IMG/VR virus record: IMGVR_UViG_647533158_000003
Length of the DNA: 31,322 nucleotides
Reading direction: 5' to 3' (one strand)
Origin: a virus
Taxonomy: Duplodnaviria; Heunggongvirae; Uroviricota; Caudoviricetes
This document shows positions 1-31,322 of the stretch, one piece after another. The position numbers and the translations under genes were made by a program. The notes under the pieces are model-generated. The model saw nothing but the letters and a program-made list of their open reading frames with translations, was not told where the DNA came from and ran no database searches. Within the stretch, counting starts at the first letter, position 1. Each line of letters begins with the position of its first letter.

Positions 1-129
1 CTATTTATCGGAAGGTTTATCTTGCTGCGGTTTGTTGTTGACCATATCGCACAACATAGAGAGCAGCATTAACCGTACTTTAAAGGGAGAATGACTAAAC
101 ACGCGCATACACCTCTTGAACTCATTCAT
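1..129 (-). CDS. mntS: Small manganese-responsive protein MntS (host gene, complete, 42 aa)
   Basis: Reverse-complement translation of 1..129 reads MNEFKRCMRVFSHSPFKVRLMLLSMLCDMVNNKPQQDKPSDK followed by a stop (TAG, complement of 1..3). Matches E. coli MntS as recalled from memory; not on the supplied ORF track because it is under 60 aa. Confidence 0.8.
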   Translation of the reverse strand: MNEFKRCMRVFSHSPFKVRLMLLSMLCDMVNNKPQQDKPSDK

Positions 130-296: not shown

Positions 297-1337
297 CTAA
301 GCTGCCGCGACATTTTTGCGACATTTTAAGGGGTTAAGTCGCACGGCATCTTCAAGGTGGCTTGGGGCGAAATGGGCATAACGCATTGTCATAGTGATGT
401 CAGCGTGGCCGAGAATTTTTTGCAGAACCAGAATGTTTCCGCCGTTCATCATAAAGTGGCTGGCAAATGTATGGCGCAGTACATGGGTAAGCTGGCCGGA
501 GGGGAGTTCAATGCCTGCACGTTCCAGAGCAGAGCGGAAAGCGTTGTAGCAGGGCTTGGGGAACAGAGCGCCTTTTGTTTCAGGTAATTCGGACAGAAGT
601 TCATCATCAAGGGGAATTGTTCTGTTGCGCTTCCCTTTGGTTTTGACGAACGTGACTTTACCCCCGGTGATCTGGGAGCTTTTCAGCGTTGCCGCTTCAT
701 TCCACCTTGCGCCGGTAGCAAGGCAGATTTTGACAACTAATTCTAGGTACTTAACTTTACTTCGTTTGCATTCCAGTAAAAGCCGATCAATTTCTTCGGT
801 AGTGAGGAAAGCCATTTCGGTTTCATCAGTACGATACTGTCTGACGTTTTCTAGTGGGTTGGGTGCTGACCATTCACCAATCCGTTTCAGCTCGTTGAAC
901 ATAGCCAGGAAGTAAGCATGTTCAAGGTTCATAGTTTTCGGGGAAACCTTAGATACTCTGTTGGTACGGGCATAATGCCCATCCAGCCTTTTAGCGCGGT
1001 AGGCTGTGAACAACTGGGCATTAAATTCTGTGGCCAGCGGGAATCCCATGCATTCCGCCGCCCAGGTCATAGCATTTTTACGCTTTTCGCCATTGCTCAA
1101 AGCTACGCCGTGGCGTTCATACCACATTGTTATCAGATCTATTAAAGTTCGCTTGTCCTTCCCTTCACCCAGCCACGGAGCTGCGTCTACTTTCTGAAGC
1201 GTATGGTTTTCGAATGCCAGGGCTTCCCCTTTCGTGGCAAATTTTTTACGTATACGCTTCCCGTTCTTGCCATTACTGCGGTTGACGGTGTAGAAGTCGG
1301 CGATCCATTCGCCTGTAGGAAGTTTACGAACGCTCAT
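297..1337 (-). CDS. int: Phage integrase, tyrosine recombinase (P2/186 Int family)
   Basis: 346-aa ORF. C-terminal region ...LTHVLRHTFASHFMMNGGNILVLQKILGHADITMTMRYAHF... carries the R..H..R..Y catalytic signature of tyrosine recombinases. Located at the prophage end, immediately downstream of the repressor gene. Confidence 0.93.
   Translation of the reverse strand: MSVRKLPTGEWIADFYTVNRSNGKNGKRIRKKFATKGEALAFENHTLQKVDAAPWLGEGKDKRTLIDLITMWYERHGVALSNGEKRKNAMTWAAECMGFPLATEFNAQLFTAYRAKRLDGHYARTNRVSKVSPKTMNLEHAYFLAMFNELKRIGEWSAPNPLENVRQYRTDETEMAFLTTEEIDRLLLECKRSKVKYLELVVKICLATGARWNEAATLKSSQITGGKVTFVKTKGKRNRTIPLDDELLSELPETKGALFPKPCYNAFRSALERAGIELPSGQLTHVLRHTFASHFMMNGGNILVLQKILGHADITMTMRYAHFAPSHLEDAVRLNPLKCRKNVAAA
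309..323. repeat. Putative attL core (GACATTTTTGCGACA), overlapping the last codons of int
   Basis: Exact 15-mer repeated at 30647..30661. An att core overlapping the 3' end of int is a common P2-like arrangement. A chance 15-mer match between the two short flanks is unlikely. Confidence 0.4.
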
Positions 1338-1338
1338 T

Positions 1339-1962
1339 TTATTTTATCGTCAGAACAACGCGGCCTATGATTTTTATGTCGTCAATTCCGCAATCAAATG
1401 CCATACCAACACCGCTAACTCTGACTTTTCGTACCGGAATCCGTGTAAGAGTGCGGACGCTTGTTTTTCCTTCAACTTCAACCAACCAATCATCGTCATA
1501 AACTTCAGAATAAGACTGGTCAACAATGTACTGAACAAGGCCATCCAGAACACAAATCGGTTGTTGCGGTAAGGGCTTACCAGGCAGGAAGATGACTTTA
1601 TCAAGCATAAGTGTGCCAGCGTCATAGAGTTGGCCATCAACAATCTTGCTGCGCGGTATTTTGAGTATGTCTAATTCATCATCATTAAATTTACGTCCCT
1701 GTCCTGTCGCCAGCCACTCCAGATTAGCGCCTGTTTCGGCTACACATTTCACGACAATGTCTGCCGGGAAAACTCCACGCTTGTAGCGTGAAGAAAGAGA
1801 ACTGGCTGCCATGTCCAGATGTTCCGCGAGCTGTAACTTCTGCGTAAATCCGTAAGCCTCGATCACCCTGTCAAGAATCGGTGTGCTATCTACGTTTAGG
1901 TCGATTTTAAATGTGCTCATAGCGAATCCATAAGTCTCGGTTCGAGAAATTGAAATTGACAC
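1339..1962 (-). CDS. cI: CI-type immunity repressor (phage 186 CI-like); true start possibly at the internal Met (1339..1920)
   Basis: The N-terminal region YGFTQKLQLAEHLDMAASSLSSRYKRGVFPADIVVKCVAETGANLEWLATGQG resembles the Phage_CI_repr HTH domain. Its stop is 1 nt from the int start (cI-int operon as in 186/P2). The upstream start overlaps the operator-like inverted repeat, so the internal Met start (MSTFK) is more plausible. Confidence 0.85.
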   Translation of the reverse strand: MSISISRTETYGFAMSTFKIDLNVDSTPILDRVIEAYGFTQKLQLAEHLDMAASSLSSRYKRGVFPADIVVKCVAETGANLEWLATGQGRKFNDDELDILKIPRSKIVDGQLYDAGTLMLDKVIFLPGKPLPQQPICVLDGLVQYIVDQSYSEVYDDDWLVEVEGKTSVRTLTRIPVRKVRVSGVGMAFDCGIDDIKIIGRVVLTIK

Positions 1963-1970
1963 TTCTCGAA
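1941..1970. promoter_or_regulatory. Lysis-lysogeny switch region: inverted repeat TTCGAGAA-N14-TTCTCGAA, with TTGACA at 1956..1961
   Basis: Perfect 8-bp inverted repeat between the repressor gene and the rightward early genes; a consensus -35 hexamer is embedded. Operator and promoter assignment is inferred from position only. Confidence 0.4.
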
Positions 1971-2055
1971 ACGCGAATTAATCTGGCTCCATATTTCGAA
2001 TGTTGCCTTATATAACCCTGTATTGCCGTACAGGTTAACTTGTGGAGTTTGCCTC

Positions 2056-2277
2056 ATGCGTCCGAACATTACAATCATCATCCCAGAGCCATACCTGCCT
2101 TTAGACGAGTATTGCCGCCGTACTGGTACCAACAAAGAAACCGCCAGGAACCTGATCGAATACGGGAAATTACCTATTAAGCCGAAGGGTAAGCAGAAGA
2201 AAGGCCTGGTCGAAGTCAACATGGCCGCGCTCACTATTCAGGCGTTAAGCGAATGTGACATTTCGCTTAACGCGTAA
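2056..2277 (+). CDS. Apl/Cox-like small DNA-binding regulator (excisionase / early-switch protein)
   Basis: Small basic ORF, first gene of the rightward early operon, in the position of P2 cox / 186 apl. I take the ATG at 2056 (MRPNITIII...) rather than the track start at 2023, which lies in the promoter region. Confidence 0.65.
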   Translation: MRPNITIIIPEPYLPLDEYCRRTGTNKETARNLIEYGKLPIKPKGKQKKGLVEVNMAALTIQALSECDISLNA

Positions 2278-2307
2278 TCCATCCTACGGATTAGGGAGAG
2301 GCAAACA

Positions 2308-2811
2308 ATGTTTGATTACCAGACCTCTAAACATGCGCACTTTGATGCGGCTTGCCGAGCATTTGCAATTGAGCACAATCTTGAAGATGTGGCCGCTGCC
2401 GTTGGTATGAGGCCGCAGATCCTGCGTAATAAACTGAACCCAGCGCAACCGCACCGCCTGACCTGTGATGAACTTTTGGCTATCACGGATTACACCGAAG
2501 ATGCGCGTTTACTGGATGGGATGCTGGGGCAGATTAACTGCCTTCCATCCGTACCGGTGAACAATGCAACAGAAGGCAACATGCAACTGTGTGCACTGAG
2601 CGCCACAGCCAGTGTGGGCGCGATTGCTGGGGAAGCCGTATCAGCTGGCCATATGACCGCCGCCCGCCGTACTCAAATTCTGGATCGCGCCCGAGATGCA
2701 ATCCGTAGCTTATCCGTGCTGGCTTATACCGTTGAAAGCCGTATTCACTCTGCGCCGGTTTTGGCCGCTGCGGTGGATCTGGTCACAACCAACGCCACCG
2801 GCCTGATGTGA
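2308..2811 (+). CDS. cII: CII-like lysogeny-establishment regulator (phage 186 CII family)
   Basis: 167 aa. N-terminus MFDYQTSKHAHFDAACRAFA...LRNKLNPAQPH closely resembles my recollection of 186 CII. Preceded by RBS GGGAGAGG. Confidence 0.8.
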   Translation: MFDYQTSKHAHFDAACRAFAIEHNLEDVAAAVGMRPQILRNKLNPAQPHRLTCDELLAITDYTEDARLLDGMLGQINCLPSVPVNNATEGNMQLCALSATASVGAIAGEAVSAGHMTAARRTQILDRARDAIRSLSVLAYTVESRIHSAPVLAAAVDLVTTNATGLM

Positions 2812-2820
2812 GGGAGAACC

Positions 2821-2994
2821 ATGAAAGCGTTTGTCACTTACCTGAAAAACGAATCACCGGCCATGCAATTGCCCAGTGGTTCAACGGGCTGGATTGAACT
2901 GCCGAACGGTCAGCGCTGGAACCCTGGCCACATGTACAAATTCAATGGCCAGCAGCCGCGTCGCCCGTGGTGGCGTCGTCTGATGGGGCTATAG
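2821..2994 (+). CDS. Small hypothetical early protein (57 aa), in the position of 186 fil
   Basis: ATG at 2821, preceded by GAGGGAG, with an open frame to TAG at 2992..2994 (MKAFVTYLKNESPAMQLPSGSTGWIELPNGQRWNPGHMYKFNGQQPRRPWWRRLMGL). Not on the track because it is under 60 aa. Function not recognised. Confidence 0.4.
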   Translation: MKAFVTYLKNESPAMQLPSGSTGWIELPNGQRWNPGHMYKFNGQQPRRPWWRRLMGL

Positions 2995-3003
2995 GGGGGC
3001 GCT

Positions 3004-3432
3004 ATGGCGATTAGCCAGGAACAGCAAAAGCGCGGGCTGGAGCATTTAAAACAGATCCGCCGCAAATACTTCAGCGAAAGCAGCGAGGCCGCTGAATGGT
3101 GGGACAACTTGACACCGGAGTGGCGCGGCGTAGTACTTCATGCTGCTGCGGTTACTTCTGGTACCGGGGCATTTAAAGCCCATTTAAGCAAGTGCTGCTG
3201 GCGTGAGCTTTATGAACGCTTGGGCTATCGGGACATGATTCAACTGCGCCAGGGCATTTCACGGGCGCGGTTAACGTTTGAAGGTTTCGGCAGTTTACGT
3301 GACAGCGATTTTTCGAAACGTACCGCGAACCGCCCAATCAAGAAGGTTCATCCAATTTATAGCAGCAGCGGGGTGCAGATGGTGATTGCACCTCATATTG
3401 TCCAGAAGTTACAGCAACAGGGGAATCACTGA
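3004..3432 (+). CDS. Hypothetical early-region protein
   Basis: 142-aa ORF, tightly packed in the early operon between cII and gene A. No family recognised. Confidence 0.6.
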   Translation: MAISQEQQKRGLEHLKQIRRKYFSESSEAAEWWDNLTPEWRGVVLHAAAVTSGTGAFKAHLSKCCWRELYERLGYRDMIQLRQGISRARLTFEGFGSLRDSDFSKRTANRPIKKVHPIYSSSGVQMVIAPHIVQKLQQQGNH

Positions 3433-3833
3433 TGTCCATTATTTCGGTTGAAGGTAAATCACTAGGGGCAGAGCTGGCTGTGTGGGGCGTCCCGCATAAC
3501 TACGCATTAGCGTTTGCAGAGAAAAGCACCAGTAAAAATGGGCGTATCGCTTTGCATCCGTTCTTCTTCAACGACACTGAACACATGACAAATCCGCGTC
3601 ACTGGCTGGCGATCAATGCTGCTTTCTGGTGCTGCGTATATCGCGAAGCGAAAAGCAAAGAAGCCCAGATAGAAGCGCTGGCGGGGATTCGTGCAATTTT
3701 CTATACAGCCGGGGCGTTGGGAGTTGGCGAGATAAAAGCGCTGATCCAGGAGTGGTGGCGGATAACCTATGAGCTGCACCTGATTCCGGCACCGAACTAC
3801 TCAGCCGCCACAGTACAACCCACTTTTCACTAA
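3432..3833 (+). CDS. Hypothetical early-region protein
   Basis: 133-aa ORF whose start overlaps the upstream stop (translational coupling). No family recognised. Confidence 0.6.
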   Translation: MSIISVEGKSLGAELAVWGVPHNYALAFAEKSTSKNGRIALHPFFFNDTEHMTNPRHWLAINAAFWCCVYREAKSKEAQIEALAGIRAIFYTAGALGVGEIKALIQEWWRITYELHLIPAPNYSAATVQPTFH

Positions 3834-3900
3834 TTAACTGCCTGAATTTTTTGTCCACGATTCAAGTGGCCGGGGATTCTTTTGCCTTGAGGAAACCAAA

Positions 3901-4134
3901 ATGCACATGACACGTCAGGATTTACCCGCAACAAAATCAGGCACCGACCTGCTGGCCATGCTCACCAAAGCCACGCAGGAAGGTAAAGCCGCAACTGCTG
4001 ATCTGTGTTCCACCCGTCTGGATAAGCTGGCTACTCATGCAGCCAATGAAGGTTTAAGCGCAGCGGAAATCGTTGAGTTAATCCGCGAAGAAGCCGCAGC
4101 TATTTGCAGTAAAGGCGGTGCCGTATGGCAGTGA
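3901..4134 (+). CDS. Hypothetical small early protein
   Basis: 77-aa ORF directly upstream of replication gene A. No family recognised. Confidence 0.45.
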   Translation: MHMTRQDLPATKSGTDLLAMLTKATQEGKAATADLCSTRLDKLATHAANEGLSAAEIVELIREEAAAICSKGGAVWQ

Positions 4135-4158
4135 TAACTCGGTAAAAGTGGGTTAACC

Positions 4159-6183
4159 GTGATTGATATGCTGGAACCTAGCCAACACCACGCCGTCAAT
4201 GCCTGGCGGCGTGAAACCTTTGCGCCTGGCAGCCCGTCAGATGCGACGATCACAGAACGCCGCCTGTGGGCTGTTAACCCAGAGGATTACGAATGGCGTT
4301 CCCAGTACCTGCATGAGATACCCGACTGGTTAGCCGGGTATTTTGGCAATCGTTACGAAAGACTGTTTGCTGGTCGTGACGGGCGTTGCCGTGCCAATAC
4401 ATTCCTGCGCCAGACTATCGGTGGGAGTGTATTGCCACGTCTGCGTAAGGTGGCCGCACGTTACACGCTGGCCGCTGATGCACTTGATCTTCCCTTTGGT
4501 AAGTCGCTGGAGCGACTGCCGTCACTTGACCGTCCCGACCTTAAAAAACTGGCTGGACAGATTTCTGGCTGGATCTCCCAGTCATTGTATGACTTCACCG
4601 ATCAGTTTGTTGGCAGCACCGAAGATGCCGCAGAGTTGCGCCGCCGTACGCTGGAGTCTTACCGCCATCTGTGCGCCTGTTCCCTGATGCTAAATAACCA
4701 GCCGCCTTATTGGGCTGAACATGAAGCCAATGGCGGCCAGCTGGAAACACGCAAGGCTGAATCCGGGATTCTTCGCATGATGGCGCTGGAATGGTGGGTG
4801 CTGCGTCTGAAGCGTGCGCGTGATGTGCAGCGTGAACATATGGCTATAGCCGTGGGGCAGGTTCAGAAAGCCGCCACTGCGTATGTATCCCGCAAAACCC
4901 TGGGTGAATGGGTTGACCAGAAAAAGCGGAATCTGGAGTTCTTTAAAAAGTTTGATCTGCTGAATGATGAGGGGCTGCGCATTTCACTGGACAGTATGGT
5001 GCATCGCAGCGTTGCAAATCCGGCGATCCGTCGCTGTGAGCTAATGGTAAGAATGAGAGGATTTGAAGATATGGCCAATGAAGAAGGGCTGGCCGGTGAG
5101 TTTTACACCATCACCGCGCCATCACGCTTTCATGCGGTACACAGTAAAGGTGGTTTTGTTTCGCAATGGGATGGATGTACACCGCAGGATACCCAGCGTT
5201 ATTTATGTGGTGTATGGGCGAAAGCCCGCGCAGCGATCTCCCGTGCCGGTATTCATGTTTTTGGTTTTCGCGTGGTTGAGCCTCACCATGACGGGACACC
5301 GCATTGGCATATGTTGCTGTTTATGCGCCCGCACGATGTGGACACCGTGCGCGATATCCTTTGCTATCACGCCAGAATTACCGACTCTGAAGAACTGAAA
5401 ACAGAAAAGGCGCTTAAGGCACGTTTTCATGTTGAGGCTATCGATCCCGCCAAAGGTTCGGCAACGGGTTACATCGCCAAGTACATTTCCAAAAACATTG
5501 ATGGATTTGCACTGGATGGTGAACAGGACGACGAAACCGGGGAGAACATGCGCGATATGGCCAAATCCGTTTCTGCCTGGGCTTCACGCTGGCGTATCCG
5601 CCAGTTTCAACAGATTGGCGGTGCGCCGGTGACTGTCTGGCGTGAGCTGCGCCGGTTGCGTGATCAGGTGCTGACCGATCGCAAAATGGATGCAGTGCTG
5701 GCCGCTGCTGATGTTGGAGACTGGGCAGCGTATACCCAGGCGCAGGGTGGCGCACTGGTTGCCCGTCGTGATCTGGTTGTTCGTCTGGCCTATGAAATCA
5801 CAGAACAGGGTAACGAGTACGCGGAGGACGTGCAGCGCGTTCAGGGTGTCTATTCTCCCTTAGTTCCAGATTCAGAGGTTTGTACACGTCTGGTGAAGTG
5901 GCAGAAGGTGGCGAAGTTGGCCGAAGCGTCAGCGGAGGCTGGTTTTTCTGGCGGCAGCGCCGCCCCTTGGAGTTCTGTCAATAACTGTACGGAGGGTGGA
6001 ACCCGCAGACGGTTAAAACTGGAATTGCGCAGCCGGGGTTTTGATGGTTCTGACGAAGAAATAGCCATTCTCATGCGGGGTAGTGGTTTGAGATTTGGCC
6101 AGGTGGCATTGATTTACCGTAATGGCCGGTTGCAAGAGACACGAAGCGAGCCAATGCACGAGCTGTGGCCGGGGTGGTTGTAG
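4159..6183 (+). CDS. A: Replication initiation endonuclease, P2 gpA / 186 A family (rolling-circle initiator)
   Basis: 674 aa. Contains the HUH-like motif PHWHMLLF and the tyrosine motif GYIAKYISKN typical of P2 gpA-family initiators. Start is GTG at 4159 or ATG at 4165. Confidence 0.93.
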   Translation: MIDMLEPSQHHAVNAWRRETFAPGSPSDATITERRLWAVNPEDYEWRSQYLHEIPDWLAGYFGNRYERLFAGRDGRCRANTFLRQTIGGSVLPRLRKVAARYTLAADALDLPFGKSLERLPSLDRPDLKKLAGQISGWISQSLYDFTDQFVGSTEDAAELRRRTLESYRHLCACSLMLNNQPPYWAEHEANGGQLETRKAESGILRMMALEWWVLRLKRARDVQREHMAIAVGQVQKAATAYVSRKTLGEWVDQKKRNLEFFKKFDLLNDEGLRISLDSMVHRSVANPAIRRCELMVRMRGFEDMANEEGLAGEFYTITAPSRFHAVHSKGGFVSQWDGCTPQDTQRYLCGVWAKARAAISRAGIHVFGFRVVEPHHDGTPHWHMLLFMRPHDVDTVRDILCYHARITDSEELKTEKALKARFHVEAIDPAKGSATGYIAKYISKNIDGFALDGEQDDETGENMRDMAKSVSAWASRWRIRQFQQIGGAPVTVWRELRRLRDQVLTDRKMDAVLAAADVGDWAAYTQAQGGALVARRDLVVRLAYEITEQGNEYAEDVQRVQGVYSPLVPDSEVCTRLVKWQKVAKLAEASAEAGFSGGSAAPWSSVNNCTEGGTRRRLKLELRSRGFDGSDEEIAILMRGSGLRFGQVALIYRNGRLQETRSEPMHELWPGWL

Positions 6184-6302: not shown

Positions 6303-6485
6303 ATGGATCTTTTGGAAGCGTCGGCACAGCTGGAGCGTATTGAGTTATTGGCCAAAATTGCCCATGTGTACGAAAGTGACCAGCGCGAGAAAACAATCGC
6401 TTTGGCCTGGATTGGTGAGATTGCAGGAGAAATGCGACACGATCTTAGAAAAGATTTAAAAAAACAAGGTCAGGGGCCTTTCTAG
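6303..6485 (+). CDS. Small hypothetical protein (60 aa) downstream of gene A
   Basis: ATG preceded by GGGGG. Could be the last early-operon ORF. Weak support. Confidence 0.35.
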   Translation: MDLLEASAQLERIELLAKIAHVYESDQREKTIALAWIGEIAGEMRHDLRKDLKKQGQGPF

Positions 6486-6656: not shown

Positions 6657-7694
6657 TTAAACTTCTACTTCATTTTTAGAGTATATTTCCCCATCTTCTT
6701 TACGTATGCAATCACCAATGATGACTTTAAAATCTAATGATTTAATCGTATCAATAACATGATTGAGATAAATGCTATCAATTGTAGCAGGGCATAAACT
6801 TTTTAACTCATGGCCAAGTGGTGTTAGAATTAAAACCCTTAGTTTAAGTTCTTTCTTTGGATCGTCATGTTTAATCTGCATTACTTTATCATTATATATA
6901 TGATAATAAAAATAGGTTTCTTTACTAAGAGACTTGAAAGTTGAAGCTAATCCCATTGACTCAACTCCAGCAATGATGCCCAATGATTGCATCTCAGATA
7001 AAAAATTATAGTTTAGCTCATTATCTAAGTATTCGTTGCTGAAGTTCGAACCAACTTTCTCCCCCTTGATAATCCTATCAAGAAAGAGAAAAGAGAACAG
7101 TTTTTGTATTTTATTTGCTTCTTTTTGTGTCAGATTTTTGATGAAATCAACAGTTCTTAATGAATACGAACCTGGGCTTTTTAATTCACCTGCAAGTATT
7201 CTTCCCCATAAATCCTGTAACTTCTCTGAACTACTTGTTGCAGCACTATCTCTCCACCTTAGCAACCAATCATTTTCTATATTTTCGGCAGTAGGCTCAG
7301 ACTGATCAATTGAAAGTATTTCTTCGGCAACAAATAATGACTTGGCGATATTTATTTCTTTCTGGACTTCATTTGCAATAAGTTGAGTGCTTACTGCATT
7401 TTTTAAATTATCGAAATTTATGTAAGGCTCCATTGAACCTGAATTATCATACTCTTGTTTACTTTCTAATGAAATCAGTTTGGGGTTGTTTAGATCATTT
7501 AACGAAACGATTGCTTTTCCACTTTTTATGTTCTCAACATCCATCTCTGTTTGAGCCAAAACTAACATTTTTTTCCTTTCCATTTCTAAACTGGCAACTC
7601 CCTCCCTACGCATTTGCCAGGGCTTACATAAAGCGCCAATACCTTTTTCTGCTGTGGTTTCCCACAGTTTAGTTACAAGCTTTGAACCAAACAT
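6657..7694 (-). CDS. Orphan AT-rich accessory protein (345 aa) in the P2 A-to-Q accessory hotspot; candidate anti-phage defense or superinfection-exclusion gene of unknown family
   Basis: Clean 345-aa ORF with an ATG start and an AGGAG RBS. Composition is visibly much more AT-rich than the flanking phage genes. It occupies the slot where P2 carries old/tin. No catalytic motif recognised by eye. Confidence 0.75.
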   Translation of the reverse strand: MFGSKLVTKLWETTAEKGIGALCKPWQMRREGVASLEMERKKMLVLAQTEMDVENIKSGKAIVSLNDLNNPKLISLESKQEYDNSGSMEPYINFDNLKNAVSTQLIANEVQKEINIAKSLFVAEEILSIDQSEPTAENIENDWLLRWRDSAATSSSEKLQDLWGRILAGELKSPGSYSLRTVDFIKNLTQKEANKIQKLFSFLFLDRIIKGEKVGSNFSNEYLDNELNYNFLSEMQSLGIIAGVESMGLASTFKSLSKETYFYYHIYNDKVMQIKHDDPKKELKLRVLILTPLGHELKSLCPATIDSIYLNHVIDTIKSLDFKVIIGDCIRKEDGEIYSKNEVEV

Positions 7695-7844: not shown

Positions 7845-8114
7845 TCACGCTACAGTTGTGGCTTTCAGTAAATCCAGTGCCATCTGTTTTTGAGACGGTG
7901 ACATGTTGTTAAGTAGGGCTTGAACAATCACATCACCCGTTTTCGCACTGGGGCTGAGAGTGTGGGAGAACGTCAGATTCATCACAAACGTATGGCCACA
8001 CTCAACATCTGAACAGGCGCAGTAAATATCCGCAATCTGCCGGTGCTTCCGGTTTGTTTTACGAATAACAGCCTTTGAGCCGCATTCCGGGCATTCGATT
8101 TTCAGAACTCGCAT
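7845..8114 (-). CDS. ogr: Ogr/Delta-family zinc-finger late-gene transcription activator
   Basis: CPECGSKAVIRKTNRKHRQIADIYCACSDVECGHTF matches the C-x2-C ... C-x4-C Ogr/Delta zinc-finger pattern (compare P2 Ogr CPLC...YHQCQNVNCSATF as recalled). I take the start at the internal Met MRVLKIECPECG; the track ORF extends to 8168. Confidence 0.75.
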   Translation of the reverse strand: MRVLKIECPECGSKAVIRKTNRKHRQIADIYCACSDVECGHTFVMNLTFSHTLSPSAKTGDVIVQALLNNMSPSQKQMALDLLKATTVA

Positions 8115-8164
8115 ATTCCATGCTCCAGCTGTTAAATGATGCCTGGATTTTAGCCTTTTTCGCC

Positions 8165-9226
8165 TCATGCCGCATCCTTATCCGTTGATTCTGTGTAACT
8201 TAAATCAAAGTTAAGGCGCAGTCTTTCCGGTATTTCGGGATCGTTGTTAACAGCGGTCATAAACCTGCGCTGAATGGGCGCTATCTCGCTTTTCTTGTAA
8301 ATCCTTTCCGCCTTTTCAACATCCCCCAGACCGGCAGTGTTCTGCGGGACAATTCCTGCCAGTCCTGCCGGAAAGCGGTGCGCGTTGAGAATGTCCTGCG
8401 CACTGATGTTTTTGATGTTGGCAAATTCATCTTTTGCGGAGATATCCCCCATTTCAATGAACTTGATCGCATCCCCATCCCCGCCAGGAATGTTCACCAG
8501 AATAGTGGAGAAGTTACCGATACCTTTGCTGTCACGCAGTTGCTGTTCAATCTCTTCTTCCATTTCATCCGTCATACTGGGATCACGCGTGTAGAGAATG
8601 CCGCCAGTATGAGCGCCGTTGTGGTAGTAGCGGCGGCGAAAAATTACGGCTTCGCTGTTAAGCAATGCCGAGTGTACGCCGCCGATATAGTCGGGCAGTC
8701 CGTAAATATGCTGTTGCGGGTCGTACATCTTGATAAAAATGATATCTTCCTGTGGCCATACCTGCGGTTCGCCGTCCTGCAATACCACATAATCGCCGGG
8801 CTGGTCTGTGGCGTTGTCCCTGACTTTACGGCGGCGAATATACAAGCCGGGTAAAGGTTCCAGGGCAATCACATCCCCCCATCCGTTGCGGATTTTGCCA
8901 ATCGCAATATCCCCGAAGGTTGTATAGTCAAACGCTGCGGCTTCCAGCTGGTCGTAAGTCAGGCCACCGCCCAGATAATCAGACACAATCATATTTTTCC
9001 GGGCGTGGATGATGCCGCCATGCTGACCATTCAGATTGATGAGCTGTGCCAGTGCCAGCCGGTCAATCGGCTGGGTAAAGTGATCGGCGGCATTGTCGTA
9101 CCAGATGTCGCGGTAATCCGTACCGGTGGTCAGCACGGGTTCCGGTTTGCCGAATGTAATGATGCTCATTTTTTTGGACTTATCGCCGCGCGGGTTGCGC
9201 TTAACGAAGCGGTTTTTTTTACTCAT
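8165..9226 (-). CDS. Q: Portal protein (P2 gpQ family)
   Basis: 353-aa ORF immediately downstream of, and overlapping, the terminase gene on the same strand. Size and sequence are consistent with P2 gpQ portal. Confidence 0.9.
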   Translation of the reverse strand: MSKKNRFVKRNPRGDKSKKMSIITFGKPEPVLTTGTDYRDIWYDNAADHFTQPIDRLALAQLINLNGQHGGIIHARKNMIVSDYLGGGLTYDQLEAAAFDYTTFGDIAIGKIRNGWGDVIALEPLPGLYIRRRKVRDNATDQPGDYVVLQDGEPQVWPQEDIIFIKMYDPQQHIYGLPDYIGGVHSALLNSEAVIFRRRYYHNGAHTGGILYTRDPSMTDEMEEEIEQQLRDSKGIGNFSTILVNIPGGDGDAIKFIEMGDISAKDEFANIKNISAQDILNAHRFPAGLAGIVPQNTAGLGDVEKAERIYKKSEIAPIQRRFMTAVNNDPEIPERLRLNFDLSYTESTDKDAA

Positions 9227-22713: not shown

Positions 22714-24288
22714 ATGTCACAGACAACTATCACGCTGGCGTTTGAGCAATGGAAAGCGAAACAGGCCGCGACAGGTGAGGCGGTTTTACTGGACGAGTTT
22801 GTGTTTGCCAGTGTGCCAGGACTGAACCCTGATACCCCCGTTGACCGGAATGAAAAACTGCCACCGGCTGCGCAGATTGTTCACCGGCAGCCCGTTACCC
22901 GCACCGGCGTGGTGAATGAAAACGGGGTGGTGTATTCCGCTGTACTGGGGGCAGACGTGGGGGATTTCAGTTTTAACTGGATCGGTCTGCTGAATAAGGC
23001 CAGCGGAACGCTGGCGATGATTGTTCATGCACCGGCGCAGCAAAAGCTGAAAACGAAAGAAGGCCAGCAGGGTAACGTCCTCACCCGTTCATTCCTGATG
23101 GAGTACAACGGCGCCCAGACCGAAACCGGGATTAATACACCGGCTGAGACGTGGCAGATCGATTTCACTGCGCGTATGGCCGGAATGGATGAACGCCAGC
23201 GTCTGGAAAACGTGGACATTTACGGCGCGGCGGCGTTTTTCGGTGATGGTTGGCTGGTCAGTAAAACCGGTAATCAGTTTTTCGTGACCAAAGGCACCGG
23301 CTACGTGGCGGGGTTACGTGCGCCACTGGATGCAAACAAGAATATTACCGTGACCGCCAAACCGGTAAAGGTCTGGCTGGATGTGTGCTGGACGGGGGCG
23401 TTGACCAGTGTCTGGAATGTTCAGAGCAAGATTACCGTAGCGGAAAGCCTGGCTGATTATGTGCAGAACGGCGTACAGCATTACGTGTTTGCAGTGGCCA
23501 GCATTGATGTGAATGGAAATATCGCCGATTTGCGGCCAAAAGGGACGCTGAATGAGCAACAGGCAAGCAACGATTATCTGCGCAAAGATGCCAGTCTTGC
23601 TGATGTAAAAGACAAACCGAAAGCGCGAAAAAACCTTGCACTAGGTGAGCTGGCGACACTCGACAGAAATGATGTGTTGCCGGTGGGGATACCGGTACCC
23701 TGGCCAACGGATACGCCGCCAGCCGGATGGACATTGATGCAAGGCCAGGCTTTTGATAAAGCGGCCTATCCATTGCTCGCGGGTGCGTATCCTTCCGGGG
23801 TCATACCTGATATGCGGGGCTGGACAATTAAGGGGAAACCGGTCAGCGGTCGTGCAGTGCTTTCACAGGAACTGGATGGCATCAAGTCACATACTCACAG
23901 CGCGAGTGCATCAAATACGGACTTAGGCACTAAATCAAGCAGTGCCTTTGATTACGGTACTAAAACAGCCAGCACATTTGACTATGGCACTAAAACCACG
24001 AACAACACCGGAGCGCATACGCACGGTATTTCTGTTGGTAACACAGGCGCAGGTAATGGCGTTTCAGCGGGCTATAACTCAGGGCTGGGCAATGGAACGA
24101 CGGGGAGTGCAGGGGCGCACGCCCATACGGTCGGTATTGGCGCTCATAACCACACCGTCGGAATTGGTGCTCACAGTCACACGGTGGCAATTGGTGCTCA
24201 TGGGCACGCCATTACTGTGAACGCTGCCGGTAACGCAGAAAACACCGTTAAAAACATCGCTTATAACTACATTGTGAGGCTTGCCTGA
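22714..24288 (+). CDS. Tail fibre protein with C-terminal His-x-His repeats
   Basis: 524 aa. C-terminus has repeats AHTHGISVG / [36 protein letters not shown]. Followed immediately by a tail fibre assembly gene. Confidence 0.85.
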
Positions 24289-28399: not shown

Positions 28400-28993
28400 A
28401 TGGATAAAATTATGAGCATACTTACTCAATATGGAAAAGAAATTTTTGCTTTTATCGTTCCTGTCTTCACCTTAATTATAAATAAATATTTTAAAAATAG
28501 TGCCAAGATTAGCTACGGGGAATTGCATCAATTTACTTATCTGATTAACCAACCTTTAACGAATCAAGAAGGTGAAGTGGTGAAATCGTCGCAAACCGTA
28601 CATACGCAATCATATGTTTTTAAGAATGAAGGTAGAGAAGCAGCAACGAATATGGAGGTTATTTTTAACTATGCACCGATGTATCTTAATATTTGGCCAT
28701 CGCGCCTCTATACGGTAAAAAATGATTCAGAACAAAGGCATATTATGGTATTTGATTATTTAGCACCGAAAGAGGTTATACGGTGTGAAGTGATAGCTAT
28801 CAATACACAGGTGCCAATGCTTTTATCTGTAAGGTGCAAAGAAGGTCTTGCTCAGAACATAGTGCTATCGCCACAAAAAGTTTTCCATCCTGCTTTTATA
28901 AACTGTGTTCGTTTCTTGATATTCCTGGGGTCGGTAAGTCTGGTATACATTCTTGTAGTTTTACTTCAGTGGTTACTCTTAAAAACAGGTTAG
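28400..28993 (+). CDS. Hypothetical two-TM membrane protein (197 aa), AT-rich cargo gene
   Basis: Predicted TM helices near the N-terminus (IFAFIVPVFTLIINKYF) and C-terminus (FLIFLGSVSLVYILVVLLQWLLL). Composition is strongly AT-rich. An extended -10 element TGTTATAAT lies at 28381..28389. Confidence 0.55.
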   Translation: MDKIMSILTQYGKEIFAFIVPVFTLIINKYFKNSAKISYGELHQFTYLINQPLTNQEGEVVKSSQTVHTQSYVFKNEGREAATNMEVIFNYAPMYLNIWPSRLYTVKNDSEQRHIMVFDYLAPKEVIRCEVIAINTQVPMLLSVRCKEGLAQNIVLSPQKVFHPAFINCVRFLIFLGSVSLVYILVVLLQWLLLKTG

Positions 28994-29070
28994 AAAGTTA
29001 CCTGTGCAAAAACGCTTTTAGCTTGTGTGATGTTATTGTAAATATTTTCGTGAAATTAACCATTTAAAGA

Positions 29071-29092
29071 AAGCCACTATTTTGAGTGGCTT
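29071..29092. terminator. Candidate bidirectional terminator hairpin between convergent cargo genes
   Basis: 8-bp stem AAGCCACT (29071..29078) and AGTGGCTT (29085..29092) with loop ATTTTG. Lies between the 3' ends of 28400..28993 (plus) and 29133..30557 (minus). Confidence 0.35.
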
Positions 29093-29132
29093 CATTAGGT
29101 TTCTTTAATGGTAGAATTGCGAGTAATGTTTA

Positions 29133-30557
29133 TTAACTCACTAAGTTCACATAGCTGATTGCTATACGTAAAAAACTGTCGAGTGTATCGACGCTTTCTT
29201 TTATTTCTTTGTTGACACTAATCAGTTTTTCCAATCGTTCATCACTAAAATGACTTGTTATATGAATTAAATCTTCTAATATCGAGACTAAATCATTAAC
29301 AATACTAAGCTCTTTTGAAATTTCATTTTTAATAAAGTAATATTCTTCATTACCGAGTTTATCAATTAATTTATGCTGTAACTTATCCCACTTATCCAAT
29401 AGTCCATATGTTTCTGATGTTATTTTTTTCGTATTTACCAGAATAGTAGAACCTTCACTCACTTCTTTAGCATAAAGTCTATTGTGCTTTAACCAGCGAA
29501 TATTTTCATTTCTTTGTTTCAAGATGCTTTTATTTATCTTTTCGAGTTCAACATGTTTGTTCCATTTTTTTATAATATCATTTATCTTATTGTCTGTAAT
29601 TTCATACTCATTAAGAACGTTGCTGTTAAATGATAATTCTTCTACTTCTTTTAGGGAAGACTCACTAATTTCAATATCTTTAAGGTGGTTTTTTGCCTCA
29701 TGTAGAAAAGTTAATTGGTTAATTAATTGGAAGTTTTGGATGTTGGCTTCGTTGCATATTTCTGTTTTTAAAGACTCAAGAGCACCGTGTGTTTTTCCAG
29801 CGTGTGCAAACCACCAATCCTCTTTGTTATCATCACAAATAAAAATTACATTTTTTATTTTCTCTGATTTGGCTTTTTCAATGATTTCTCTCCATAAATA
29901 CAAATCACCGAATTTGTCCTGAAATTCAATGTTTGTGAAGAATGATTTACTTTTCTTTGGCGCGTCTTTGAATCCTGGTGGTATCTTATTTTCATATCTT
30001 TTTTCACCAAGTGCATTTATTTTATCTATTTGTTCCTGAGTAGGGACTTCACCAACTCTATTAGAGGTAATTATGTCGATCCTGTCACGAATAATGTCAT
30101 GCTTCGATATTTTCTTTTTGTTTTCAATTCTTGGAGTTATCTTTTTATTAATATACTCCTCAATTGGTTTTTTAATTTTACTTTGCAGATCAGAAAGTTC
30201 TTTGTTTAAAGCGCTATAAAGATGTTTTTTTACACTACCAGAAGATAATATTTCTTTCGTATAAATGCTTTCTAATTCATCTTTAATTTTATCTAGGCTT
30301 TTAATACTATCTTCAATTACAGAACGTCTGTTTCTCTGATATTCAAATCCAACTTGGAATGGTATCCAAGTTCTGGGAGCAATAGCATCCATTACTTTAA
30401 GTATATCTTCGCGGGTATGATCTTCACATCTATATAAGTTAAGAAGGCAATTTGTATCAAAAACAAAAAGAGTGGAATCATCCAACCATATATTTGCTAC
30501 TGATTCAGTAGGAGTACTATAGAAACCTAAAAAGGTTGATTTCAAGGGGACCTCCAA
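29133..30557 (-). CDS. PIN-like domain protein (474 aa), candidate nuclease-type defense or abortive-infection effector; start probably TTG (30555..30557, or 30543..30545 after a GGAGG RBS)
   Basis: N-terminal strand motif LFVFDTNCLLNLY is a typical PIN beta-1 signature with the first catalytic Asp; a later acidic cluster VIFICDDNKEDWW follows. The C-terminal half is long, Lys/Glu-rich and helical. The gene is AT-rich and sits in the cargo island. Confidence 0.7.
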   Translation of the reverse strand: MEVPLKSTFLGFYSTPTESVANIWLDDSTLFVFDTNCLLNLYRCEDHTREDILKVMDAIAPRTWIPFQVGFEYQRNRRSVIEDSIKSLDKIKDELESIYTKEILSSGSVKKHLYSALNKELSDLQSKIKKPIEEYINKKITPRIENKKKISKHDIIRDRIDIITSNRVGEVPTQEQIDKINALGEKRYENKIPPGFKDAPKKSKSFFTNIEFQDKFGDLYLWREIIEKAKSEKIKNVIFICDDNKEDWWFAHAGKTHGALESLKTEICNEANIQNFQLINQLTFLHEAKNHLKDIEISESSLKEVEELSFNSNVLNEYEITDNKINDIIKKWNKHVELEKINKSILKQRNENIRWLKHNRLYAKEVSEGSTILVNTKKITSETYGLLDKWDKLQHKLIDKLGNEEYYFIKNEISKELSIVNDLVSILEDLIHITSHFSDERLEKLISVNKEIKESVDTLDSFLRIAISYVNLVS

Positions 30558-30854: not shown

Positions 30855-31322
30855 ATGAGTCGTCGCGCAGGTACGCCAACAGCAAAAAAAGTGACGCAGT
30901 TAGTGAACGTGGAAGAGCACGTTGAAGGGTTCCGCCAGGTCAGAGAGGCGCATCGGCGCGAGCTTATTGATGATTACGTTGAGCTGATTTCTGACTTGAT
31001 CAGGGAAGTGGGGGAAGCTCGTCAGGTGGACATGGCTGCTCGTCTGGGAGTTTCGCAACCGACGGTGGCTAAAATGCTTAAGCGGCTGGCAACCATGGGG
31101 CTGATTGAAATGATCCCCTGGCGTGGCGTGTTTTTAACGGCAGAAGGAGAGAAGCTGGCGCAGGAAAGCCGCGAGCGACATCAGATAGTCGAAAATTTCT
31201 TGTTGGTGTTGGGCGTCAGTCCGGAAATCGCCCGTCGCGACGCGGAAGGCATGGAGCACCATGTTAGTGAAGAGACGCTCGACGCTTTTCGTTTGTTTAC
31301 CCAGAAACACGGTGCCAAATGA
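30855..31322 (+). CDS. mntR: Manganese-responsive transcriptional regulator MntR (DtxR family), host gene
   Basis: 155-aa ORF. The sequence [86 protein letters not shown]... matches E. coli MntR as recalled. Has a GAGGAAG RBS and a DtxR-type HTH. Confidence 0.88.

Follow-up and report, generated by a model that had tools for sequence, protein, structure and literature searches.

A 57-codon ORF directly downstream of cII in an Escherichia coli P2/186-like prophage is a member of the known Fil family

In phage 186, fil (NP_052282.1; Pfam family PF10893, formerly DUF2724) lies directly 3' of cII in the early operon, whose promoter is pR; in the database record the two genes are 7 nt apart (cII, 23435-23944; fil, 23952-24179), and fil carries the note 'overexpression blocks cell division'. 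No study of the target or mechanism of Fil was found in the literature searched, in which fil was used only as a reporter fusion point: the early promoter pR of 186 was reported by a fil'-lacZ translational fusion (as described by Murchland et al. 2020, PMC7708051), and since this fusion works as a reporter, the start of 186 fil is translated from the pR transcript. Among other phages, lambda Kil depends on ZipA for its action on FtsZ (PMC3961180), Qin DicB works by way of MinC (PMC4967827), and T7 Gp0.4 binds FtsZ (PMC13423816). Like Fil these are small early or host-takeover inhibitors of cytokinesis; the likeness is in function only, no sequence similarity to Fil being detected (PF10893 was the only Pfam family found).

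The window analysed here (31,322 nt, the whole stretch of DNA) is an E. coli chromosomal segment with a P2/186-like (Peduoviridae) prophage, and the gene layout at its left end is the lysis-lysogeny switch and early operon arrangement of phage 186 (Table 1). Phage 186 sits at a tRNA gene, whereas this prophage appears to have integrated between mntS and mntR. The gene upstream of the 57-codon ORF is cII, which shares its strand and operon. A reading of the sequence by itself, below called the sequence-only reading, had pointed to this ORF as unlisted, well supplied with an RBS, filling the space that separates cII from the following early gene, and placed as fil is in 186. The start and stop codons, the RBS and the flanking genes were all found as described, and fil is directly 3' of cII in both phages, the intervening gap measuring 9 nt here. 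The word 'unlisted' holds for the ORF lister, whose default minimum of 60 aa excludes a product of 57 aa, but not for RefSeq and phage records, in which the gene is already annotated.

Table 1 Features of the window discussed in the text, with positions counted from its first nucleotide.
Feature	Position	Strand	Remarks
mntS	1-129	-	42-aa ORF; called MntS in a 99.9% identical E. coli record
Integrase	297-1337	-	
CI repressor	1339-1962	-	
apl/cox-like gene	2056-2277	+	phrog_575
cII (186-type, CP76 family)	2308-2811	+	PF06892, E 1.3e-46; stop TGA 2809-2811
Shine-Dalgarno-like GAGGGAG	2810-2816	+	Overlaps the cII stop; 4 nt to the ATG
fil-family ORF	2821-2994	+	57 codons + TAG stop; ATG 2821, TAG 2992-2994
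Conserved N-terminal module, aa 1-38	2821-2934	+	MKAFVTYLKxESPxxQL...GWIELPNGQRWNP; only part homologous to 186 Fil
Basic, tryptophan-rich C-terminal tail, aa 45-57	2953-2991	+	QPRRPWWRRLMGL; candidate amphipathic membrane-targeting helix
Run of six G	2994-2999	+	Likely RBS of the next early gene
ATG of the next early gene	3004-3006	+	
ORF of 142 aa	3004-3432	+	Function not known; phrog_33841
ORF of 133 aa	3432-3833	+	Function not known; phrog_3935
DUF2732 gene	3901-4134		
gpA replicase	4159-6183		
Iron-dependent-repressor family gene	30855-31322	+	Presumably mntR

A listing of the same 8 kb returned many spurious ORFs of 50-120 aa, and because dozens of similar ones are present, length alone is no evidence for a gene. 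These neighbours, together with the shortness of the protein and a structure model of low confidence, are what would speak for a chance ORF, the DNA that separates cII from the next gene being then a non-coding spacer. Conservation of the frame in relatives, named by the sequence-only reading both as the check and, if lacking, as the refutation, was tested and confirmed. Of the 27 related loci compared, 20 come from other Enterobacterales and four are diverged E. coli prophages, the others being phage records; dN/dS was estimated by the Nei-Gojobori method on codon alignments of the window gene with each relative. Synonymous and nonsynonymous differences numbered 24 and 1 for L027 (dN/dS 0.005), 22 and 3 for L025 (0.02), 7 and 1 for L002, and 27 and 13 for L006 (0.04); over all pairs with an estimable dS the ratio ranged from 0.005 to 0.43, every one being below 0.45. 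Strong purifying selection on the predicted product is demonstrated by these substitutions. In all 14 relatives in which reading frames were checked, only the plus frame of the ORF is open across the whole 174 nt, the remaining five frames being interrupted inconsistently, and the DNA alignment shows the RBS (as TGAGGGA) kept in every close relative. It is this conservation of substitution pattern, frame and RBS, together with a Pfam match over the curated cut-off (below), that raises the ORF above chance. A chance ORF, refuted by the substitution pattern and the open frame in relatives and at odds also with the existence of 650 homologues, is extremely improbable; on the comparative sequence data, this is a real protein-coding gene.

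Conservation might also stem from an overlapping element, namely an antisense ORF of 65 aa (2910-3107), an RNA or a regulatory site, and the 3' end of fil does overlap the translation-initiation region of the next gene. Against this, the substitutions cluster at synonymous sites of the plus frame, the antisense frames are among those broken in relatives, and no Rfam match, promoter or terminator lies within the ORF, so that we regard such an origin of the conservation as scarcely credible. The scans concerned covered positions 1900-4300: no promoter-like site was found, and neither a terminator-like site nor an Rfam match (E <= 1) was found in or adjoining the ORF, which fits an internal cistron.

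The product was assigned to the Fil family by several searches. Residues 1-37 match PF10893 (Phage_186_Fil) at profile positions 1-34 of 56 with 38.5 bits (gathering cut-off 25 bits; E 9.5e-10), and a Pfam scan at E <= 0.1 matched nothing else; among PHROGs, phrog_7623 was matched with E 1.6e-29 and phrog_816, 'cell division inhibitor', with E 5e-8. BLASTP against 186 Fil gave 36% identity over 33 aa (E 2e-6), and hhalign of subfamily profiles (68 relatives against nine 186-type Fils) gave a probability of 99.0% and E 5e-18 over 33 columns (residues 3-38). Homology of the N-terminal ~38 residues to Fil of phage 186 is thus shown by profile and pairwise comparison. Similarity over the full length was not found, since the C-terminal halves fail to align; it appears not to define the Fil family, whose tail classes vary within the family. 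No NCBIfam model matched either this protein or 186 Fil, so that the RefSeq name must derive from another type of evidence, and PADLOC at E <= 0.01 gave no defence-protein match for the product.

All 76 matches of a sequence search carry PF10893, as do all 120 matches listed from a profile search that returned 650 proteins at E <= 1e-3; frequent NCBI names are 'phage filamentation protein Fil family protein' and 'DUF2724 domain-containing protein'. The Fil family is small: an HMM search of 1.84 billion cluster representatives yielded no more than 45 (E <= 1e-3), of which a few are long and probably unrelated multi-stretch proteins, and the ~650 sequences fall into only 45 clusters at 50% identity, those with a named source being nearly all from Enterobacterales. 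WP_000643378.1 (RefSeq, 'phage filamentation protein Fil family protein') is 100% identical to the window protein and is found at the same place in E. coli mip270_05; YP_009877600.1 of Escherichia phage ESSI2_ev015 (Quadragintavirus) is 98% identical. Both share the gene neighbourhood of the window gene and represent the same allele, with no substantive difference. This DNA is present in 32 of 5,426 complete E. coli genomes, and in all but one of the 30 listed a Fil annotation lies under the match, the match in the exception (H41) spanning only the first 21% of the query. The gene accordingly belongs to a known family, the Fil proteins of P2/186-like phages, and is annotated in public genomes already; the assignment is correct but ordinary.

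Of 26 loci sampled across some 15 genera of Enterobacterales, 24 retain the gene order cI-apl-cII-fil. Two Brenneria loci (L020 and L021) have ~315 nt between cII and fil, where an extra gene has probably been inserted. A diverged fil (36-37% identity) is present in Pectobacterium (L022) and in a further Brenneria locus (L023), and neither cI, apl nor cII of the 186 type could be recognised within 2.5 kb of it; the link of Fil to the 186-type switch is therefore not strict. Downstream the two phages differ, 186 fil overlapping dhr, whereas the window prophage is without dhr and has the unrelated 142- and 133-aa ORFs in its place. These two ORFs (together 3004-3833) are conserved and accompany this fil subtype in most enteric relatives. 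In Yersinia phage vB_YenM_324 the gene at the first of these positions is called 'replication protein GpB'; its identity to the 142-aa ORF is just 29%.

The window protein and 186 Fil have in common the homologous N-terminal module, a small size and a basic, hydrophobic C-terminal tail. Residues F4, S12, G23, W24, E26 and G30 are invariant in the family; beyond residue 38 the sequence is variable and always basic, with a median net tail charge of +6 (+5 in the window). Three tail classes were distinguished: class 1, that of the window, RRPWW(R/F)RLMGL; class 2, VLRFLSTKxRRLVG, in longer proteins of 75 aa; and class 3, the 186 type. Class 1 is the most widespread, occurring as RRPWWFRLMGLRG in Yersinia, Ewingella, Rahnella and Brenneria. 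186 Fil, with 75 aa, has a longer and more hydrophobic tail (GFLIIRIVHFVIKGVKHVTR), whereas the 57-aa window protein ends in RRPWWRRLMGL, and the two tails are unalignable. AlphaFold2, with an alignment of 68 sequences, predicted a short helix (3-9), a GWIELPNGQRW hairpin (25-33) and a short C-terminal helix (51-54), all at low confidence (pLDDT 65.8, pTM 0.25). Foldseek against the PDB with this low-confidence model gave only matches with E > 5, and the best match of a PDB profile search (E 0.66) was at chance level; such a lack of fold and sequence relatives among solved structures is typical of a peptide that would fold on its target.

Shifts of frame immediately upstream of the next gene's start set the 57-, 64- and 75-aa alleles apart. 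Those of 64 and 75 aa end in ...GRYG(H/D)*, which in the window corresponds to DNA 2997-3014, and GRYGH/D is conserved because it is the RBS and ATG of the next gene read in another frame, a by-product of the overlap. The 57-aa allele was also considered as a damaged or truncated form of the longer ones, and this was rejected, GRYGH/D being the RBS and start of the next gene and the proteins of distant genera ending in ...LMGLRG. Some database homologues are fusions or frameshift products: P0045 has the Fil N-terminus joined to the middle of the protein of the 133-aa ORF, which implies a deletion; P0071 continues into the 142-aa ORF; P0075 departs from the family after residue 28. From the frame-changed alleles (including L026:2014-2241) and the fusions, the 3' end of fil can be described as an indel-prone junction.

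As to function, the reading preferred here, with a probability of roughly 0.8, is that of a fil-family gene of a P2/186-like prophage, situated in the rightward early operon after cII and encoding a peptide that would block cell division. On infection or induction the early lytic promoter would drive the ORF together with apl and cII, and its translation would probably be coupled to that of cII; the peptide of 57 residues would, by extension of the note on 186 fil, block division of the host, and the cell would filament while the phage replicates. The filamentation phenotype itself comes from that database note and from overexpression. If the activity resides in the tail, the function could differ from that of 186 Fil, similarity stopping at about residue 38.

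The otherwise unalignable tails share a motif, hydrophobic-hydrophobic-(K/R)-R-L-hydrophobic-G, seen as WWRRLMGL in the window, as ILRRLFGR in P0152, and further as ALRRLF and AIKRLL; the tail of FtsA resembles it likewise. The membrane-targeting sequence of E. coli MinD is KGFLKRLFGG (PMC5471200), and the likeness of its FLKRLFGG to WWRRLMGL and ILRRLFGR is that of a short motif at the extreme C-terminus, not homology. Of 134 tails, 68 contain a hydrophobic-x-R-L-hydrophobic motif (3.4 expected from shuffled sequences), an enrichment inflated by the relatedness of the sequences. The hydrophobic moment of the window tail (0.61; MinD, 0.45; FtsA, 0.81) is not above that of shuffled, composition-matched tails (z = 0.2), and the C-terminal helix predicted by AlphaFold2 is of low confidence. 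By analogy with MinD, the motif suggests that the Fil tail may tether the peptide to the membrane. Tentatively, Fil-family peptides could then be modular, membrane-tethered division inhibitors. The N-terminal module (short helix and GWIELPNGQRW hairpin) would bind a division protein facing the cytoplasm, the candidate target being most likely at the FtsZ/FtsA/ZipA proto-ring stage, and an interchangeable basic, hydrophobic C-terminal tail, mimicking those of MinD and FtsA, would deliver the module to the inner membrane and hold it there. We regard this bipartite proposal as possible rather than probable.

Lambda CIII is a small peptide with a basic, hydrophobic tail. A real Fil-family gene might have a native role other than a division block, the sole recorded phenotype stemming from overexpression. 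In one version the peptide would act like lambda CIII, shielding CII from FtsH and RseP and thereby tuning the choice between lysis and lysogeny, filamentation being a side effect of overexpression; in another it would have some other role in host takeover or exclusion. For the first version speak the tight linkage to cII in 24 of the 26 loci, the overlap of the fil RBS with the cII stop, the small size and basic, hydrophobic tail that the peptide has in common with CIII, and the degradation of 186 CII by the membrane proteases FtsH and RseP (PMC7708051); but the 186 switch is described as having 'no CIII-like factor' (Murchland et al., PMC7708051), the product matched PF10893 only and is not a member of Lambda_CIII in the Pfam scan at E <= 0.1, and in L022 and L023 fil is present although no cII could be recognised. 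Stabilisation of CII in the manner of CIII is thus a weaker rival to the bipartite division-inhibitor proposal, and a native role of either kind is rather unlikely beside the division block, which remains the reading we prefer.

The value for annotation is slight, the gene being already called in RefSeq and phage records and missed here through the 60-aa filter, although short early genes of P2/186-like prophages do drop below such length filters. The remaining interest lies in Fil as a conserved host-takeover peptide whose mechanism is apparently undescribed, and in the MinD-like C-terminal motif, which offers a cheap, testable hypothesis for its action. If true, the modular-tether reading would give a mechanism to a gene of phage 186 for which no target is described in the literature searched.

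Some further ORFs of the prophage were recorded. Just 3' of gpA is an ORF of 60 aa (6303-6485, plus strand), a hypothetical protein (WP_000364822.1) in a near-identical RefSeq record; it is without a Pfam match and, like fil, has a size at or near the 60-aa cut-off. An ORF of 345 aa (6657-7694, minus strand; DUF2806, E 1.5e-25) lies between gpA and an Ogr-like zinc-finger gene (7845-8168) with the portal gene, and occupies the gpA-gpQ interval, a variable hotspot in which anti-phage systems ride in P2-like phages (PMC9122126); PADLOC gave no match for it, and it might represent a defence candidate not yet characterised. Towards the right end of the prophage (28400-30557), just before the mntR-like host gene, are an ORF of 197 aa without a Pfam match (28400-28993, plus strand) and an ORF of 473 aa with a PIN_8 domain (29133-30557, minus strand; E 3.2e-59). 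Neither was matched in PADLOC; the two may form a cargo or defence module.
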